From Clostridia bacterium (GTDB lineage: Bacteria > Bacillota > Clostridia > Oscillospirales > CAG-272), in NCBI GenBank assembly GCA_017622085.1, contig JAGARU010000097.1, forward strand, positions 23,956-87,955: a DNA stretch of 64,000 nt. Reading direction: 5' to 3'. The translations under genes and the position numbers were made by a program. The number at the start of each line of letters is the position of its first letter. The stretch's first letter is position 1. The notes beneath the pieces were generated by a model. The model ran no database searches. It was given only the letters and a program-made list of their open reading frames with translations, and was not told the origin of the DNA. Positions 38,871-46,569 of this stretch are shown here, in pieces.

Positions 38871-40319
38871 ATGATATACGACATTGCAATAATCGGTGCC
38901 GGTGTAACCGGTGCCATGACTGCGTACTATTTAGCAAAGTACGATCTTCACGTAGCCGTCCTTGAAAAGAACTCGGACGTAGCGTCCGGTACTACCAAGG
39001 CCAATTCCGCCATTGTTCACGCCGGCTTTGATGCCAAGCCCGGCACCAAAAAGGCTGCCCTCAACGTGAAGGGCTGTGCCATGATGGAGACCTTGACCGA
39101 GACCTTGGGTGTCCACTATAAAAAATGCGGCTCCTACGTTCTCGGCTTCTCCGACGGAGATAAGGACCGCCTTGAAGAACTGAAGGCGCGTGGTGAGCAG
39201 AACGGCGTACCGGAGCTTTCCATCCTTTCGGGTGAGGAGCTGAGAAAAAAGGAACCCAACCTCTCCCCGGAGGTCAAATGGGCCCTCAGTGCTCCAACCG
39301 CGGGCATCGTCTGTCCCTACGACTTGACTCTTGCCTTGGCGGAAAACGCTGCCTCCAACGGTGTGGATTTCTATTTTGATTTTCCCGTTTGCGCGGTTCG
39401 CCGCGCAGGCGAGACCTACGTCCTTGAAGGAAACGGCAGGGAAGTAGAGGCACGCTATATCGTCAACGCCGCAGGTCTTGCCTCGGCGGATATGGCAACT
39501 CTTTTGGGCGAGGAGAATTTCCCCGTCACTATTTTGCCCCGCCGCGGCGAGTATATGCTTTTGGATCGCGCCGAGGGAGCCTTCGTTTCCGCTACCATGT
39601 TCGTCCTGCCCGATGAGCGCGGCAAGGGAATTTTGATCTCCCCCACCGTGGACGGCAATCTGATCGTGGGCCCCAATGCCCAACTGGTTGAGGATCGTGA
39701 GGATCGCGCCACCACCGATGCCGGCCTTGCGGAGATCACCGCCGGTGCCAGACGCATTGCTCCCGGCGTAAATCTTCGCGCCGTTATCACCTCCTTCGCC
39801 GGCGTTCGCTCTACCCCCTCCACCGGCGACTTCTATCTTGAAATTTCCGAGCAGTGCCCCCACGTGATCCACGCGGTCGGCATTGAATCCCCCGGACTTG
39901 CTTCCTCTCCTGCCGTTGGCGAGTACATCGTATCCCTCCTTGCCAAGGACGGCGTGGTCCTGCGCGAGAAGGAGACGTACGTTAAGGAGCGCCGCCCCGG
40001 CGGCAACCGCCCCCTCTTCCGTGACCTCAGCGAGGCGGAAAAGCAGGCGCGTATTAAGGAAGACCCCGCCTACGGCAAGATCGTCTGCCGTTGCGAGACC
40101 ATCACCGAGGGTGATATTTTAGATGCCATCCGCCGCCCCGTGGGTGCGCGGAATCTGGATATGGTCAAGCGCCGCGTCCGCGCCGGCATGGGCCGCTGTC
40201 AGGGCGGCTTCTGCTCCCCCCGCGTTGCGGAGCTGTTGGCCTCGGAGCTTAAGGTTCCCCTCAGTACCATCACCAAAACCGGCGGCGGATCCTATCTGCT
40301 GACCGAAAAGACCAAGTAA
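38871..40319 (+). CDS. FAD-dependent oxidoreductase, GlpA/L-2-hydroxyglutarate oxidase-like, with BFD-like [2Fe-2S] domain
   Basis: YDIAIIGAGVTGAMTAYYL dinucleotide fold and a C-terminal CRCETITEGDILDAIRR ... GRCQGGFC. Confidence 0.85.
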   Translation: MIYDIAIIGAGVTGAMTAYYLAKYDLHVAVLEKNSDVASGTTKANSAIVHAGFDAKPGTKKAALNVKGCAMMETLTETLGVHYKKCGSYVLGFSDGDKDRLEELKARGEQNGVPELSILSGEELRKKEPNLSPEVKWALSAPTAGIVCPYDLTLALAENAASNGVDFYFDFPVCAVRRAGETYVLEGNGREVEARYIVNAAGLASADMATLLGEENFPVTILPRRGEYMLLDRAEGAFVSATMFVLPDERGKGILISPTVDGNLIVGPNAQLVEDREDRATTDAGLAEITAGARRIAPGVNLRAVITSFAGVRSTPSTGDFYLEISEQCPHVIHAVGIESPGLASSPAVGEYIVSLLAKDGVVLREKETYVKERRPGGNRPLFRDLSEAEKQARIKEDPAYGKIVCRCETITEGDILDAIRRPVGARNLDMVKRRVRAGMGRCQGGFCSPRVAELLASELKVPLSTITKTGGGSYLLTEKTK

Positions 40320-40332
40320 GGAGGAAACGACA

Positions 40333-41601
40333 GTGAAAAAGAAGATCGTAGTCATCGGCGGCGGCCCCGCCGGCCTTGCGGCCGCTCTGTCTGCCGCAAA
40401 ACACGGTGTTTCCCCCTCGGATATTCTGATCCTGGAGCGCGACCGTGAGCTGGGCGGCATTCTCAACCAATGCATCCACGCCGGCTTCGGCCTCCACTAC
40501 TTCGGCGAGGAGCTGACCGGCCCGGAGTATGCCTCCCGCTTTGTGGAACAGGTTCAGGCGGCGGAGATCGAGTATGCTACCGATAGCATGGTTCTCTCCC
40601 TTGCTGAGGACCGTACCGTTACCTTCGTCTCTCCTAAATACGGCTTCTGTACCGTAGAGGCCGAGGCCGTTATTTTGGCTATGGGCTGTCGGGAGCGCAC
40701 CCGCGGTGCCCTGAATATCCCCGGCACCCGTCCGGCCGGTATCTATTCTGCCGGCACGGCACAGCGCTACGTCAACATTGACGGCTATCTCCCCGGCCGC
40801 GAGGTGGTCATCCTCGGCTCCGGCGACATCGGCCTTATTATGGCACGCCGCCTTACTCTGGAGGGAGCTAAGGTCAAGCGCGTATGTGAGCTGATGCCCT
40901 ATTCCGGCGGCCTTGCCCGTAACATTGCCCAGTGTCTGAACGATTTTGATATTCCGCTCTACCTTTCCCATACCGTAACCAAGATCCACGGACGGGAGCG
41001 CGTCGAGGGCGTAACCATTTCTCAGGTGGATGAAAACCGCCGTCCCATTCCCGGCACGGAGGAATTCGTTTCCTGCGACACTCTTCTGCTTTCCGTTGGT
41101 CTCATTCCCGAGAATGAGCTAACCCGTGGCGCCAACATCCGCCTGGATCCCGTCAGCGGCGGTGCCGTGGTGGATCAGCACTGCGAGACGGAAAAGCCCG
41201 GCATCTTTGCCTGCGGCAACGTGCTCCACGTGCACGACCTGGTGGACTTCGTTTCAACCGAAGCAGAAAACGCCGGTGCCTCCGCCGCCCGCCTGGTGCT
41301 TAACGGTGCCGAGGAGGCACAAAACGTCTGCCCCATCAAGGTGCAGAATCACGTGCGCTATTCCGTGCCCCAATCCGTCCGTGCCTATGAGACCCCGGAC
41401 GAAAAGGTGCGCATTCTCTTCCGCGTGGATAATAACTACCGCAACGTAAAAACCGTTCTCACCGCGGACGGCGTGGTGATCGCGTCCAAAAAGCGCATGG
41501 TCGTAGCCCCCGGCGAGATGGAGAGCCTTGAGGTCAAGGGCGACGCCCTGAAAAAGCTGTATCAGGCAAAGGAAGCCATTCTTTCCTTGGCCGAAGTGTA
41601 A
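40333..41601 (+). CDS. pyridine nucleotide-disulfide family FAD/NAD(P) oxidoreductase
   Basis: KIVVIGGGPAGLAAAL and VVILGSGDIGLIMA Rossmann motifs. GTG start follows AAGGAGGA. Confidence 0.85.
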   Translation: MKKKIVVIGGGPAGLAAALSAAKHGVSPSDILILERDRELGGILNQCIHAGFGLHYFGEELTGPEYASRFVEQVQAAEIEYATDSMVLSLAEDRTVTFVSPKYGFCTVEAEAVILAMGCRERTRGALNIPGTRPAGIYSAGTAQRYVNIDGYLPGREVVILGSGDIGLIMARRLTLEGAKVKRVCELMPYSGGLARNIAQCLNDFDIPLYLSHTVTKIHGRERVEGVTISQVDENRRPIPGTEEFVSCDTLLLSVGLIPENELTRGANIRLDPVSGGAVVDQHCETEKPGIFACGNVLHVHDLVDFVSTEAENAGASAARLVLNGAEEAQNVCPIKVQNHVRYSVPQSVRAYETPDEKVRILFRVDNNYRNVKTVLTADGVVIASKKRMVVAPGEMESLEVKGDALKKLYQAKEAILSLAEV

Positions 41602-41611
41602 GGAGGACACT

Positions 41612-41971
41612 GTGAAAAAGGAATTTACCTGTATTGTATGTCCCGCCGGCTGTCCGCTTACCGTCGAGCTGGATGAGGACGGCGTAGTCGTTTCCGTTAC
41701 CGGCAATACCTGCCGCCGCGGCGAGATTTACGCAAAGGAAGAGCTGACCGATCCCCGCCGCACCCTTACCAGCACCGTTAAGCTGGAGGGCCGGGAGCTG
41801 GCCATGCTGCCCGTCCGTACCGACAAGGGCATCCGGAAGGACGCCATGGCCGAGGCAATGGAGATTTTAAAAACCGTCACCGTCAAGCTTCCCATCAAGC
41901 GCGGCGACGTGATCCTCGAAAACTTCACCGAAGAGGGCATCTCCCTCATCGCCTGCAAAAATATGGACTAA
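41612..41971 (+). CDS. DUF1667 domain protein
   Basis: CIVCPAGCPLTV ... GNTCRRGEIYAKEELTDPRRTLTSTV. This is the usual third member of the oxidoreductase trio. Confidence 0.85.
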   Translation: MKKEFTCIVCPAGCPLTVELDEDGVVVSVTGNTCRRGEIYAKEELTDPRRTLTSTVKLEGRELAMLPVRTDKGIRKDAMAEAMEILKTVTVKLPIKRGDVILENFTEEGISLIACKNMD

Positions 41972-41976
41972 ACAAA

Positions 41977-42006
41977 CGGAGCTGTCCTGCGACAGCTCCG
42001 TTTTTC
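41977..42006 (+). terminator. rho-independent terminator of the DUF1667 operon
   Basis: CGGAGCTGTC / GACAGCTCCG stem followed by T5. Confidence 0.85.
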
Positions 42007-42007
42007 C

Positions 42008-42036
42008 TTGAAGACGGTATCGGTTTGTGATATAAT
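42008..42036 (+). promoter_or_regulatory. sigma-A type promoter (extended -10) of the TIR gene
   Basis: TTGAAG (42008-42013), 17-nt spacer ending in TGA, TATAAT (42031-42036). Confidence 0.65.
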
Positions 42037-42061
42037 AGAGAAAAAAGTAGAAGGAGGCTTT

Positions 42062-44254
42062 ATGACTGAAATATCGGTTAAAACAAGAGGAAGCTCCTCG
42101 CCCCAAGGCAAGCCTCGCGTCTGGTTCTGCGCACATCCGGAGGATTACGCATTCTACCTCGAGCCTGTTTCCGAGGAAATCCTCGCAAAACAAAACTGCG
42201 CTTTTTATTACGAGAAAGCCTCCCTTCAGCCTTGTGATACGGAAAAGCTTCTTTCGGAGCTTTCTCAGATCAATCTGTTCGTCATGCCTGTAACCGCCCG
42301 ATTGCTCACAACAAAAAATCGGGCTCTGGACGTAGAGTTTGCCTATGCCGTGGAGCATCATATTCCCGTCCTGCCCCTCATGCAGGAGCAAGGGCTGGAG
42401 TCCCGCTTCAACGAAGCCTGCGGCGACCTCCAGTTTCTTGATAAAAATCAGCGGGACGAAACTGCGATCAGCTATGACGAAAAGCTGGAGAAATACCTCG
42501 CCTCCGTTTTGGTCAGTGACGAGCTGGCAGAGAAGGTCCGTGCGGCCTTTGACGCTTATATTTTCCTCAGTTATCGCAAAAAGGATCGTAAATACGCCCA
42601 AGAGCTGATGCGCCTGATTCATGAAAACGATTTTTGTCGGGATATTGCCATCTGGTACGATGAATTTCTTACCCCCGGCGAAAATTTCAACGATTCCATT
42701 GCCGAAGCCCTCAAAAAAAGTAAGCTCTTTGCTCTTGCCGTTACCCCAAATCTGGTCAACGAGAAAAACTACGTTATGACCGTGGAATATCCGGAGGCGG
42801 TAAAGGTCGATAAGACGATTCTCCCGATGGAGCTGGTCTCCACCGATGCGGATGCCCTGCGTGAAAGCTATCCGGGCATTCCCGCATGTACGAACGCCTA
42901 CGATCCGGAGGATTTGGCCTCCACGTTGCATTACGCACTGGAATCCATTGCTCTGCGAGAAAACAACAACGATCCCAAGCATAATTTCTTCATCGGATTA
43001 GCTTATCTGAGCGGCATCGACGTGGAGGTTAATCACAAAAGAGCCGTATCGCTCCTTACCGGCGCGGCGGAAGCCGGCCTGCCCGAGGCCATGAGTAAGC
43101 TGATCAATATGTACCGCACCGGAGAAGGCGTTGTACGGGACTACAATACGTCCGTTCAATGGCAAAAGCGGTTGGTGGAGTATCGCAGAGAAGCATACGC
43201 AGCGTGCACCTCGGAGGATAACACCTGGTACTACGTGGAGGAGCTGTGGAATCTGGTCGAGGCCCTGCTCGCTTTGCACACATACGGGGACGCACGGATG
43301 GTATGTGAGCAGACGGTGAGGATCGCTACCGACCTGGTCGATCGCTTTGACCACCCATGGAGCCGACGGCAGCTGGCGAGGGCATACCACCTGCTGGGTC
43401 AGGTTTCTGCCGCTGAGGGCAGATCGGAGATGGCAAAAGAGTGTTATTTAAAAGCTCTGGTAACTGTTGAACCCTTGGAGAATGTGGGTGGATTTACCGG
43501 CACCGTGTTCCGGCGGGATGATTCTTCCGACTGCTTGGCGCTGGCCGATCTCTCCATGGTGCGGGGCGACTTTGCCGAGGCTGAGGACTACCTTCGGAAG
43601 GCCATTGCGATCCGGGAGGATTTGGCAAAGGAAAAGAAAACGCCTGAGGCGCGCAGAGACCTTTCGACAGCCTACAGCCGGATAACCGAGCTTTATCTTA
43701 TGCAAGGCCGCGCCGATGCGGCGGAACCGTATCAGACAAAAGGCTTAGCTATAAACGAAACCTTGGCCGCGGAGTTGAAAACCGCGCCCGTCCGCCGGAA
43801 TTTGTCCGTTGACTACGAAAAAATGGGCGACATTGCCGATCAGAGAAGCAATCGAACAGAAGCGAGGGAGTATTACCTGAAAAGCTTGGCCATTCGAAGG
43901 GAGCTGTCCAAGGAGACCGAGACCTTGGAATCTTATCGGGATTGCTTTGCCATTCTCAGCCGACTGGGTAACCTTTCCGAGATGGAAAACGAGATGAGCG
44001 AGGCATCGGACTATTATGCAGAGTGCTTGAAGCTCAGCGAAATGCTGGCCGAACGGGCGAGCACCGTGGAATCGCTCCATGATTTAGCCATCGCCTGCTA
44101 TAATATGGCCTCCGTTGAATCGGGGGAACGACAGCGGGAGCTTTTTTGTAAAGCGCTCTCTATCTGGGAGGATCTGGTGCGCCGCAACCCGGAAAACGTG
44201 ATGTTTTCACGCGGCCTCCTTGCGGTAAAGCAAGCGCTTGCCCAAATGGAATAA
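42062..44254 (+). CDS. tandem TIR-like domains + Sel1-like repeats + TPR array protein (730 aa)
   Basis: GAAGGAGG RBS precedes ATG 42062. aa ~165-265: AYIFLSYRKKDRKYAQ ... LFALAVTPN ... VMTVEYPEAV ... ILPME (TIR_2-like). aa ~17-115 repeat the same layout (RVWFCAHPED ... LFVMPVT ... ALDVEFAYAV ... IPVLPLM). aa ~305-370 are Sel1-like (GLAYLSGIDVEVNHKRAVSLLTGAAEAGLPEAMSKLINMYRTGEG). The C-terminal ~330 aa are TPR-like helical repeats. Confidence 0.75.
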   Translation: MTEISVKTRGSSSPQGKPRVWFCAHPEDYAFYLEPVSEEILAKQNCAFYYEKASLQPCDTEKLLSELSQINLFVMPVTARLLTTKNRALDVEFAYAVEHHIPVLPLMQEQGLESRFNEACGDLQFLDKNQRDETAISYDEKLEKYLASVLVSDELAEKVRAAFDAYIFLSYRKKDRKYAQELMRLIHENDFCRDIAIWYDEFLTPGENFNDSIAEALKKSKLFALAVTPNLVNEKNYVMTVEYPEAVKVDKTILPMELVSTDADALRESYPGIPACTNAYDPEDLASTLHYALESIALRENNNDPKHNFFIGLAYLSGIDVEVNHKRAVSLLTGAAEAGLPEAMSKLINMYRTGEGVVRDYNTSVQWQKRLVEYRREAYAACTSEDNTWYYVEELWNLVEALLALHTYGDARMVCEQTVRIATDLVDRFDHPWSRRQLARAYHLLGQVSAAEGRSEMAKECYLKALVTVEPLENVGGFTGTVFRRDDSSDCLALADLSMVRGDFAEAEDYLRKAIAIREDLAKEKKTPEARRDLSTAYSRITELYLMQGRADAAEPYQTKGLAINETLAAELKTAPVRRNLSVDYEKMGDIADQRSNRTEAREYYLKSLAIRRELSKETETLESYRDCFAILSRLGNLSEMENEMSEASDYYAECLKLSEMLAERASTVESLHDLAIACYNMASVESGERQRELFCKALSIWEDLVRRNPENVMFSRGLLAVKQALAQME

Positions 44255-44295
44255 GGGTATTCAAAGAGAAACGGGAGAGATCTCCCTGTCCGAAA

Positions 44296-44337
44296 ACAAA
44301 AAAGAAGCACTTGCAAAAGCAAGTGCTTCTTTTTTTT
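44296..44337. terminator. bidirectional terminator shared by the TIR gene and tRNA-Leu
   Basis: AGAAGCACTTGC-AAAA-GCAAGTGCTTCT stem flanked by an A-tract and T7. Confidence 0.85.
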
Positions 44338-44423
44338 GGTGCCGGTGATCGGGGTCGAACCGATACGGTATCACTACCACAGGATTTTGAGTCCAGCACG
44401 TCTGCCAATTCCATCACACCGGC
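44337..44423 (-). tRNA. tRNA-Leu (anticodon CAA), CCA encoded
   Basis: Reverse strand GCCGGTGTGATGGAATTGGCAGACGTGCTGGACTCAAAATCC... with anticodon loop CT-CAA-AA, a long variable arm, TPsiC arm GGTTCGACCCC, and acceptor ...CACCGGCACCA. Confidence 0.92.
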
Positions 44424-44515
44424 GTACCGACGGAAATGATTATATCATACCGCACGGGATATTTCAAGAGTTTTTTTTATTTTTGTAAAAATTCTTTTTT
44501 TCTCGCGGATAGTGG

Positions 44516-45945: not shown

Positions 45946-46569
45946 ATGCTTTATTTAACGGAAAATTTAAAAAAGTATCGCACAGAAAAGGGTTTAACCC
46001 AAGAGGATGTCGCTGAGGCGCTGGGCATTACGCCCCAAAGCGTGTCGCGCTGGGAGCGGGGCGAATGTTGTCCGGATATCCTGTTTTTGCCCGCTCTTGC
46101 CAACCTGTTTGAGATCAGCGTGGATATGTTGATCGGCATGGATGTCATCCGTGCGGATGAAACCTATTATACCATCCATCAAAAGGCCAACGCGGCACAG
46201 CACCGAGGCGATTACGCCGCGGCCGCCGCCCTCTACCGAGAGGCTTTGCTGGTGTACCCCAACCGCCCGGATATGATGTTAGGCCTGGCCGGTGCCCTTG
46301 CGTTAGGCGGGAAGTATGCGGACGCAATTCGATGGGCGGAGAAAGGGCTTGTCCGCTCGGAAAATGAAAAGCAAAACGCCACCATGCGTGCAGCTTTGTG
46401 CTTTTTGTACCTGCGGAGTGGACAGCTTGACAAAGCACACCGCGCCGCTTCTCGATTGCCCCACGCAAGAGAAAGTCGCGAGGAGATTTTGCCCTTGATT
46501 GCCGAATGCCGCACCCCCGACCTGATCGATGCGGATCTCCACCGCATCCTTTTGGGTGAGGAAAAATAA
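45946..46569 (+). CDS. XRE-family HTH regulator fused to a short TPR domain
   Basis: LKKYRTEKGLTQEDVAEALGITPQSVSRWERGE (HTH_3), followed by ~130 aa of TPR-like repeats. Confidence 0.8.
   Translation: MLYLTENLKKYRTEKGLTQEDVAEALGITPQSVSRWERGECCPDILFLPALANLFEISVDMLIGMDVIRADETYYTIHQKANAAQHRGDYAAAAALYREALLVYPNRPDMMLGLAGALALGGKYADAIRWAEKGLVRSENEKQNATMRAALCFLYLRSGQLDKAHRAASRLPHARESREEILPLIAECRTPDLIDADLHRILLGEEK

Follow-up and report, generated by a model that had tools for sequence, protein, structure and literature searches.

Tandem TIR-like/TIR/Sel1/TPR proteins of gut and rumen Clostridia: a candidate single-chain NAD-degrading immune sensor

The genome fragment analysed here is a stretch of 64 kb from a Clostridia bacterium (contig JAGARU010000097.1), referred to below as the window. 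It carries a gene for a protein of 730 amino acids (aa) in which a degenerate TIR-like domain (domain 1, or TIR1), a TIR domain (domain 2, or TIR2), Sel1-like repeats and a TPR-like array are joined in one polypeptide. Judging from homology, the pattern of conservation and the genomic context, we regard this protein as, on balance, probably a single-chain TIR sensor-effector, that is, a one-protein immune sensor that would degrade nicotinamide adenine dinucleotide (NAD). The main rival to this interpretation is a conserved NAD-related role outside defence.

Domain organization of the protein

The order of the domains is TIR-like/TIR/Sel1/TPR. This layout, proposed in the first-pass annotation of the same DNA, is recovered by Pfam, the family profile, hhalign, AlphaFold and Foldseek. 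The profile searches suggested there as a check found TPR families and placed TIR_2 above its cut-off and the lone Sel1 repeat below its own: Pfam TIR_2 (PF13676) matches aa 167–256 with 39.1 bits (cut-off 28; profile positions 1–89 of 122), TPR_12 reaches 68.9 bits, with several TPR families covering aa ~395–700, and the single Pfam Sel1 repeat has 25.6 bits for a cut-off of 30.7. The profile of 58 full-length relatives matches solved Sel1-repeat proteins at aa ~303–374 (E = 7e-37).

The full-length AlphaFold model has a predicted local distance difference test score (pLDDT) of 88.0 and a predicted template modelling score (pTM) of 0.71. In this model a pair of beta-alpha domains precedes at least 16 helices; the TPR-like solenoid comprises 16 helices, or about eight helix pairs, and aa 263–385 contain only a linker and the Sel1-like helices. 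Foldseek searches with the full-length model returned only TPR proteins, for example LGN/Pins, with template modelling (TM) scores for the target of up to 0.76. An NTPase of the NB-ARC, NACHT or AAA P-loop type was sought in the Pfam and NCBIfam scans of the protein and none was detected. The protein is most likely a cytoplasmic single chain of the TIR class.

Domain 1 (aa 1–162, the TIR-like fold being assigned to aa 1–125) has no Pfam or NCBIfam match. In profile–profile comparison (hhalign) it aligns with TIR2 at 97.4% probability (E = 1.3e-11), with Glu92 opposite Glu242. Modelled separately, it has a pLDDT of 87.9, and its best Foldseek matches are the TIR domains of RPS4, PdTIR, BtpA, BtTir, RUN1, SARM1 and AbTir (E from 5e-5 to 2e-3, TM 0.5–0.65), in agreement with the earlier description of this region as a first, degenerate TIR copy. 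A DUF4062 or NIR identity was also considered for domain 1 and dropped, since Pfam gave nothing at E <=1.

The probable catalytic domain

Conservation was measured on an alignment of the N-terminal region of 255 family members. Glu242, which the annotation had singled out as the conserved glutamate of the second TIR domain, is present in 255/255 members. Other residues of TIR2 are equally invariant: F168, S170, R172, W198, D200, E201, G206, T228 and N236. Position 92 of domain 1 is occupied by Glu in 185/255 members, by Asp in 41/255 and by a hydrophobic residue (V, A, L or I) in at least 26/255. Both TIR copies had been described as carrying the glutamate; this holds for the window protein, which has Glu92 and Glu242, and fails for the family, in which Glu92 is variable. 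Mean pairwise identity across the 255 members is 74% for TIR2, 60% for the Sel1 part and 54% for TIR1. As Glu92 is not conserved, the first TIR domain is very unlikely to be an enzyme. The pattern of conservation suggests that TIR2 is probably the enzyme and TIR1 a non-catalytic domain.

Glu242 lies opposite Glu642 of SARM1 in local and global hhalign alignments and in BLASTP, the SARM1 sequence having been verified against the Protein Data Bank (PDB). The closest single-sequence PDB match is IL-1RAcP (6e-4); in the phmmer alignment with its TIR domain, Glu242 is paired with the LEF-motif Glu, which lies in the corresponding alphaC-helix region. When the family profile is compared with solved structures, the best matches are AbTir (4e-4) and BtTir (5e-3), and hhalign relates TIR2 to the AbTir/BtTir group with 95% probability (E = 6e-9). 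According to a published supplement (PMC9092222), members of this group yield v-cADPR-x in vitro. The BB-loop (aa 203–207) is the only segment of the model with pLDDT <50, as would be expected of a mobile loop.

Variation of the TPR array

The TPR region of the family is built from units of 47 aa. One 90%-identity cluster contains both P0020, a protein of 1022 aa found on 11 contigs, and P0268, one of 646 aa found on 19 contigs. The two agree at 643/646 aligned positions (99.5%) and differ by a single clean deletion of 376 aa, which is exactly 8 x 47 aa. With each form found on more than 10 contigs, TPR copy number appears to be polymorphic within apparently one species. At the DNA level, tandem repeats of 141 nt and multiples thereof are found in 13/81 family loci (71–90% matches, up to 14 copies); no 141-nt tandem repeat is detectable in the window gene. 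The TPR array thus evolves in this family by rapid gain and loss of 47-aa units.

A second allele of the gene from the species of the window (L092) is 98.45% identical in nucleotide sequence, and the adjoining DUF1667 gene differs at 1/360 nt. Of the 13 amino-acid replacements between the two alleles, seven fall within aa 547–567, in one TPR unit (window 43700–43762). This cluster suggests local diversification or a recombination patch. A conserved putative effector combined with a fast-changing repeat array would be the pattern of an immune receptor.

Size and distribution of the family

A word-indexed search returned more than 3,000 relatives, the best non-self match being ~50% identical overall; the best 120 matches listed all have TIR_2 and TPR families, and most also have Sel1. 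An exhaustive HMMER scan with aa 1–300 as the query, against 1.84 billion 50%-identity representatives and at E <=1e-30, gave 1,652 proteins, which sets a lower bound of 1,652 on the number of 50%-identity clusters in the family. Among the best 150 matches listed, nearly all have the module at the N-terminus, with 52–68% identity. The few relatives that bear names are proteins of metagenome-assembled genomes labelled Ruminococcaceae, Oscillospiraceae, Lachnospiraceae or Clostridia bacterium, and carry the product names 'TIR domain-containing protein' or 'tetratricopeptide repeat protein'. The named sources are all Clostridia metagenome-assembled genomes, obtained from gut, rumen and faecal samples.

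The family proteins retrieved measure 210–1903 aa, fragments and one double-module protein included, and over this range of lengths the N-terminal module remains ~60–68% identical. The latter (P0121, 1903 aa) contains two complete tandem-TIR modules, at aa 12–279 and 937–1260, as if two genes had fused, and two family genes lie 6 kb apart on another contig (L114:684-8651); tandem paralogy therefore occurs within the family. One IMG/VR contig has a family gene, at the contig end beside McrBC, and is probably host flank DNA.

The protein identical to the window product (P0001) is found on five contigs. Its occurrence is limited to a small number of metagenome assemblies (samples ERZ28655052 and ERZ28654748; run SRR12529200). 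The organism has no close relative among 185,579 GTDB species representatives, the best match of the neighbouring 422-aa housekeeping protein being 69% identical.

Genomic context of family members

The context of the family was studied in 61 distinct metagenome contexts, with 80 control loci from comparable genomes. A TIR gene from outside the family is present within 10 kb in 13/61 family contexts and in 1/80 control loci (Fisher p = 8e-5). Together with the copy-number polymorphism of the TPR array, this enrichment beside other TIR genes makes the sensor/effector reading of the annotation a plausible one. A conserved partner gene was sought across the 61 contexts; no neighbour is conserved, and the family protein therefore has no obligate linked partner. 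The window copy, flanked by DUF1667, tRNA-Leu and homoserine dehydrogenase, is likewise devoid of a partner gene, as had been stated.

Defence-type genes occur at individual loci and encode a Card1-like endonuclease-domain protein, McrBC, ADP-ribosylglycohydrolase, ThsB-like proteins and a type IV restriction enzyme. A few neighbours match specific defence models (ThsB-like, type IV restriction, CARF-nuclease and SduA), and the neighbour matches to PADLOC ABC-type and HTH models are probably generic. For P0119, a protein found on 23 contigs, four places drawn from different samples were compared, and the context was stable.

Three loci are rich in TIR genes. The first (L159:6564-18003) codes for a 999-aa Card1-like endonuclease-domain protein, a 95-aa RyR-domain protein and the family protein; a truncated family paralogue (TIR_2 + Sel1, 394 aa) and three more TIR_2 genes in a row belong to the same island. 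Another (L134:3531-14413) has two other TIR genes and an ADP-ribosylglycohydrolase gene beside the family gene, and the third (L096:836-12338) has three other TIR genes, one of them for a 1724-aa TIR-SecA_DEAD protein (SecA-like ATPase). A RyR-domain protein of ~95 aa recurs beside family genes, in 4/61 contexts by sequence clustering; Pfam RyR is found in 5/169 immediate neighbours. The loci concerned are L114:6468-6755, L159:9582-9866, L135, L139 and L146, and at some of them the RyR protein stands beside a membrane protein of ~590–760 aa with no Pfam match.

The gene and its surroundings in the window

The features of the gene are listed in table 1. At the level of sequence, the gene reads as a monocistronic, isolated transcription unit, as had been proposed, with terminator-like hairpins on either side and its own promoter-like site; these promoter and terminator calls are consensus matches only. 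The upstream hairpin itself (41974–42003) has 13-nt arms, 100% complementary, and a 4-nt loop, and is followed by a T-run. The promoter-like site starts at the base directly after this hairpin and its T-run and agrees with the consensus at 10/12 positions, with the TG in addition; three promoter-like sites were seen in that region, for 2.2 expected by chance. The two 17-nt arms of the downstream hairpin pair along their whole length (100% complementary); an A-run borders it 5' and a T-run 3'. The annotation had described it as a bidirectional terminator common to the gene and to tRNA-Leu(CAA), and had noted that the 3' end of the tRNA points toward the gene; the perfect 17-bp stem and the minus-strand position of the tRNA agree with both statements. 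The tRNA gene has its own promoter-like site at 44467–44439.

Table 1. Features of the tandem-TIR gene and its immediate flanks, in window coordinates.
Feature	Position	Strand	Basis or remark
Coding sequence, tandem-TIR/Sel1/TPR protein, 730 aa, ATG start	42062-44254	+	Open reading frame list
Domain 1 (aa 1-162), degenerate TIR-like flavodoxin fold and helical linker	42062-42547	+	hhalign, Foldseek
Glu92 codon of domain 1	42335-42337	+	Variable across family
Domain 2 (aa 163-262), TIR_2, BB-loop WYDEFLTPGE	42548-42847	+	Pfam, family profile
Glu242 codon of domain 2	42785-42787	+	Invariant across aligned family
Two Sel1-like repeats (aa ~301-372)	42962-43177	+	Family profile versus solved Sel1-repeat proteins
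TPR-like solenoid, putative sensor (aa ~385-729)	43214-44248	+	Pfam TPR_12, TPR_2, TPR_1; model helices
Ribosome-binding site GGAGG, 4 nt before ATG	42053-42057	+	Direct sequence reading
Intrinsic-terminator-like hairpin, closing the upstream DAO/Pyr_redox_2/DUF1667 operon	41974-42007	+	Hairpin and T-run
Sigma-70-type promoter-like site TTGAAG, 17-nt spacer, TG-n-TATAAT	42008-42036	+	Consensus match only
Bidirectional terminator-like hairpin between the TIR gene and tRNA-Leu	44298-44335	.	Hairpin and A-run/T-run
tRNA-Leu(CAA), neighbour, no part of the system	44337-44423	-	ARAGORN

The neighbours in the window are the DAO/Fer2_BFD, Pyr_redox_2 and DUF1667 operon, tRNA-Leu, homoserine dehydrogenase, an HTH_3-TPR protein and a type III pantothenate kinase-like gene. 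The operon (38871–41971) codes for a DAO/Fer2_BFD oxidoreductase of 482 aa, a Pyr_redox_2 protein of 422 aa and a DUF1667 protein of 119 aa. Its gene order is kept in all 80 related loci retrieved and resembles an anaerobic glycerol-3-phosphate dehydrogenase-type cluster. The HTH_3-TPR protein (45946–46569; 207 aa, XRE type) is encoded 1.7 kb downstream of the TIR gene, past tRNA-Leu and homoserine dehydrogenase. HTH_3 proteins also adjoin some family members (e.g. L084:10851-11432), with no link to the TIR gene established. No second TIR gene is present within the 64-kb window.

From the orientation of the tRNA, the annotation had considered that the gene might have been inserted as a tRNA-linked island. 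This idea found no support: the window contains neither an integrase open reading frame nor a direct repeat of the tRNA 3' end, the composition of the gene is ordinary and every conspecific contig reaching past DUF1667 carries it. The G + C content of the TIR gene is 53.1% (window, 54.7%), and that of its third codon positions is 62% (neighbours, 62–74%). The only tRNA-related repeat is a 12-nt inverted match, 92% complementary, between 42014–42025 in the promoter region and 44358–44369 in the body of tRNA-Leu; it was dropped as an att site because its orientation and position are wrong and because it is imperfect and probably due to chance. Nor was the expected presence/absence polymorphism of the DUF1667-to-tRNA-Leu interval observed. 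The gene is present in 5/5 conspecific contigs reaching past DUF1667, and none lacks it (a small sample, obtained by exact lookup of the DUF1667 protein). When GTDB was scanned with the Pyr_redox_2 protein, the three-gene operon was recovered at 80 loci, and the tandem-TIR gene lay within 10 kb at 0/80 of them. These distant genomes are uninformative: the nearest loci are <=69% identical and the homoserine dehydrogenase gene is not syntenic in them, so that insertion and loss cannot be told apart.

Comparison with known TIR systems

One-protein TIR NADases with a repeat sensor are a kind already known. The annotation had stated that described TIR defences always pair the TIR domain with partner genes, a view that is outdated, and its description of a new one-gene TIR architecture was overstated: a study of E. 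coli validated twelve TIR systems, mostly single proteins, and thus single-protein TIR and TIR–TPR anti-phage systems have been published (PMC11350192). In the same study, conserved active-site residues of the TIR domain were needed for defence. Among the new systems, TIR-II, which combines a TIR and a TPR domain, is reported to be both the commonest and the most widely distributed; the two domains are found in one protein or two, TIR-II is absent from the five systems called two-protein, and ~30% of TIR-II systems have an ATPase domain (PMC11350192). The window protein resembles TIR-II at the level of architecture only, in having TIR and TPR in one polypeptide. It differs by a degenerate TIR domain in front, by Sel1 repeats between TIR and TPR, by its 47-aa unit, by lacking an ATPase domain and by the origin of its family, which is gut and rumen Clostridia and not E. 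coli. The BcTir/Tpr system described in a preprint has a different, two-gene arrangement.

SARM1 also joins a helical-repeat solenoid to a Glu-dependent TIR domain, and its ARM solenoid gates the TIR NADase. In both proteins the spacing between this Glu and the betaD-motif Pro is 13 residues (I-L-P in the window protein, I-V-P in SARM1), and their box-1 motifs are similar (FLSYRKK and FISYRR, respectively). Unlike SARM1, which has the order ARM-SAM-TIR, the window protein has no SAM domain, an N-terminal TIR, TPR/Sel1 in place of ARM repeats, and two TIR-like domains. AbTir and BtTir, producers of 2'cADPR, are the best profile matches among solved structures and share the WYDEF BB-loop motif; however, they have a coiled-coil N-terminus, a single C-terminal TIR domain and no repeat sensor, and the position of the catalytic Glu is off by four residues in the profile alignment.

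TIR-STAND proteins (Avs/NLR-like) are similar in having an N-terminal TIR effector and a C-terminal TPR sensor array that varies in repeat number, but the window protein has no STAND NTPase module. A likeness to SpbK may also be noted. SpbK, the product of the ICEBs1 defence gene, spbK, is a single TIR-domain abortive-infection protein and likewise a one-gene TIR defence with no partner effector; unlike the window gene, it is carried on a mobile element, and it has no TPR array. Two reports on ICEBs1 of Bacillus subtilis describe an anti-phage gene and a NAD-degrading defence (PMC8880864, PMC11984713).

What distinguishes the present family is a TIR duplication in which one copy has degenerated, a Sel1 bridge and the array of 47-aa units with no STAND NTPase, as well as its restriction to gut and rumen Clostridia and the extreme conservation of its effector.

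Proposed mechanism and alternative explanations

In the proposed mechanism, the Sel1/TPR solenoid would bind a trigger, most likely a phage protein, and binding would relieve autoinhibition or drive self-association. The catalytic TIR2 would be brought into the TIR–TIR contacts required by NADase TIR domains, with the non-catalytic TIR1 as a possible built-in partner or scaffold. Cleavage of NAD+ by TIR2 would cause depletion or produce an ADP-ribose-derived signal, and the infected cell would stop growing (abortive infection). Such a logic would match that of single-protein NADase defences with a repeat sensor, and that of SARM1.

A number of observations weigh against this interpretation. 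The window copy is surrounded by housekeeping genes, with no defence or mobile gene near it, and its presence in all sampled conspecific contigs past DUF1667 amounts to apparent fixation in the species. For a defence effector, TIR2 is unusually well conserved (74% pairwise identity), which could point to a cellular partner or role that is itself conserved. Scans of a phage collection (50,697 records) and a plasmid collection (72,556 records) turned up Sel1 matches only and no homologue of the tandem-TIR module, and only a modest fraction of the immediate neighbours of family members match specific defence models. The PADLOC search suggested by the annotation gave no confident match to any system-specific model of PADLOC-DB v2, the similarities being weak (a generic TPR model, 1e-5; SAVED_TIR, 3.5e-5; ThsB1, 5e-4). 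In the supplements searched from a survey of gut TIR NADases, neither a motif of the family nor an assayed member of it was found. Finally, two differing registers were obtained for Glu242: profile alignments with the AbTir group set it four residues past the catalytic Glu208, whose position is occupied by the strictly hydrophobic V/I238. As this register puts V/I238 at the catalytic site, TIR2 can be regarded only as a putative enzyme.

The conservation of TIR2, the housekeeping neighbourhood and ordinary composition of the window copy, the apparent fixation, the stable context of P0119 and the lack of homologues in the phage and plasmid collections scanned all favour a TIR protein that, as an enzyme or a source of signal, would serve a conserved function in the cell and have no part in phage defence, and the TPR array of which would bind an endogenous protein partner. 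Gut bacterial TIR domains are known to make variants of cyclic ADP-ribose detectable in vivo (PMC9092222), and the product could be an NAD-derived second messenger, serve stress- or sporulation-linked control of NAD, or reach the host gut. However, the copy-number polymorphism of the TPR units between near-identical alleles and the turnover of the DNA repeats are more in keeping with a diversifying receptor than with a fixed interface. Family genes also group with other TIR genes and with some genes of defence, and none of their neighbours is conserved across the 61 contexts. We consider this explanation unlikely, although it is the one that deserves most attention after a single-chain immune sensor.

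Two other roles are less likely than a conserved non-defence one. Both TIR-like domains might act as a non-enzymatic scaffold or adaptor that only assembles proteins, the Glu being structural; the hydrophobic residue found at the catalytic position in the AbTir-group alignment, the clear loss of the Glu requirement in domain 1 and the closest single-sequence PDB match, to the scaffold-type TIR domain of IL-1RAcP (6e-4), would be consistent with this. The invariant Glu242 nevertheless aligns with Glu642 of SARM1, the betaA/AA-loop and BB-loop residues are also invariant and look more active-site-like than interface-like, and bacterial TIR proteins studied so far are mostly enzymes; such a scaffold thus seems improbable. 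More doubtful still is a Thoeris-like TIR enzyme whose signal would act on an effector encoded elsewhere in the genome. The weak PADLOC similarity to ThsB1 and SAVED_TIR points in that direction, as do the members found in multi-TIR islands with Card1-like endonuclease-domain, ADP-ribosylglycohydrolase or small RyR-domain proteins. The genes of Thoeris systems described so far form tightly linked operons, though, and no ThsA-like gene (SIR2/SLOG or Macro) stands beside the window gene or most family members, so that the arrangement is not that of Thoeris; moreover, the protein already has its own large sensor domain.

A more far-reaching version of the single-chain sensor, which we hold to be rather unlikely, may be put forward as speculation. 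The tandem module might form a single-chain pair of enzyme and pseudo-enzyme, in which TIR1 would supply in cis the partner surface that other NADase TIR domains gain only through oligomerisation, and the Sel1/TPR part would gate a self-contained switch. Given that the >1,600 clusters from Clostridia of the gut and rumen share ~60–70% identity in the module, gut anaerobes could possess in it a dominant enzyme of innate immunity or NAD signalling that has so far gone unrecognised, possibly with a distinctive ADP-ribose-derived product.

Biological significance

If the protein is indeed a single-chain sensor-effector, the family, with its at least 1,652 clusters at 50% identity, would be among the largest TIR families still without assays, and a STAND-free, tandem-TIR layout would join the one-protein NADase immune sensors. 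The family would also lend itself to the study, in a natural setting, of how a pseudo-TIR works together with an active TIR domain, and of how the specificity of a TPR array changes through the gain and loss of 47-aa units. Should this interpretation fail, the family would instead provide one of the rare examples of bacterial TIR proteins that are highly conserved and yet act outside immunity. The question bears on the phage–host biology of gut anaerobes, and it may bear on NAD-derived metabolites of the gut.

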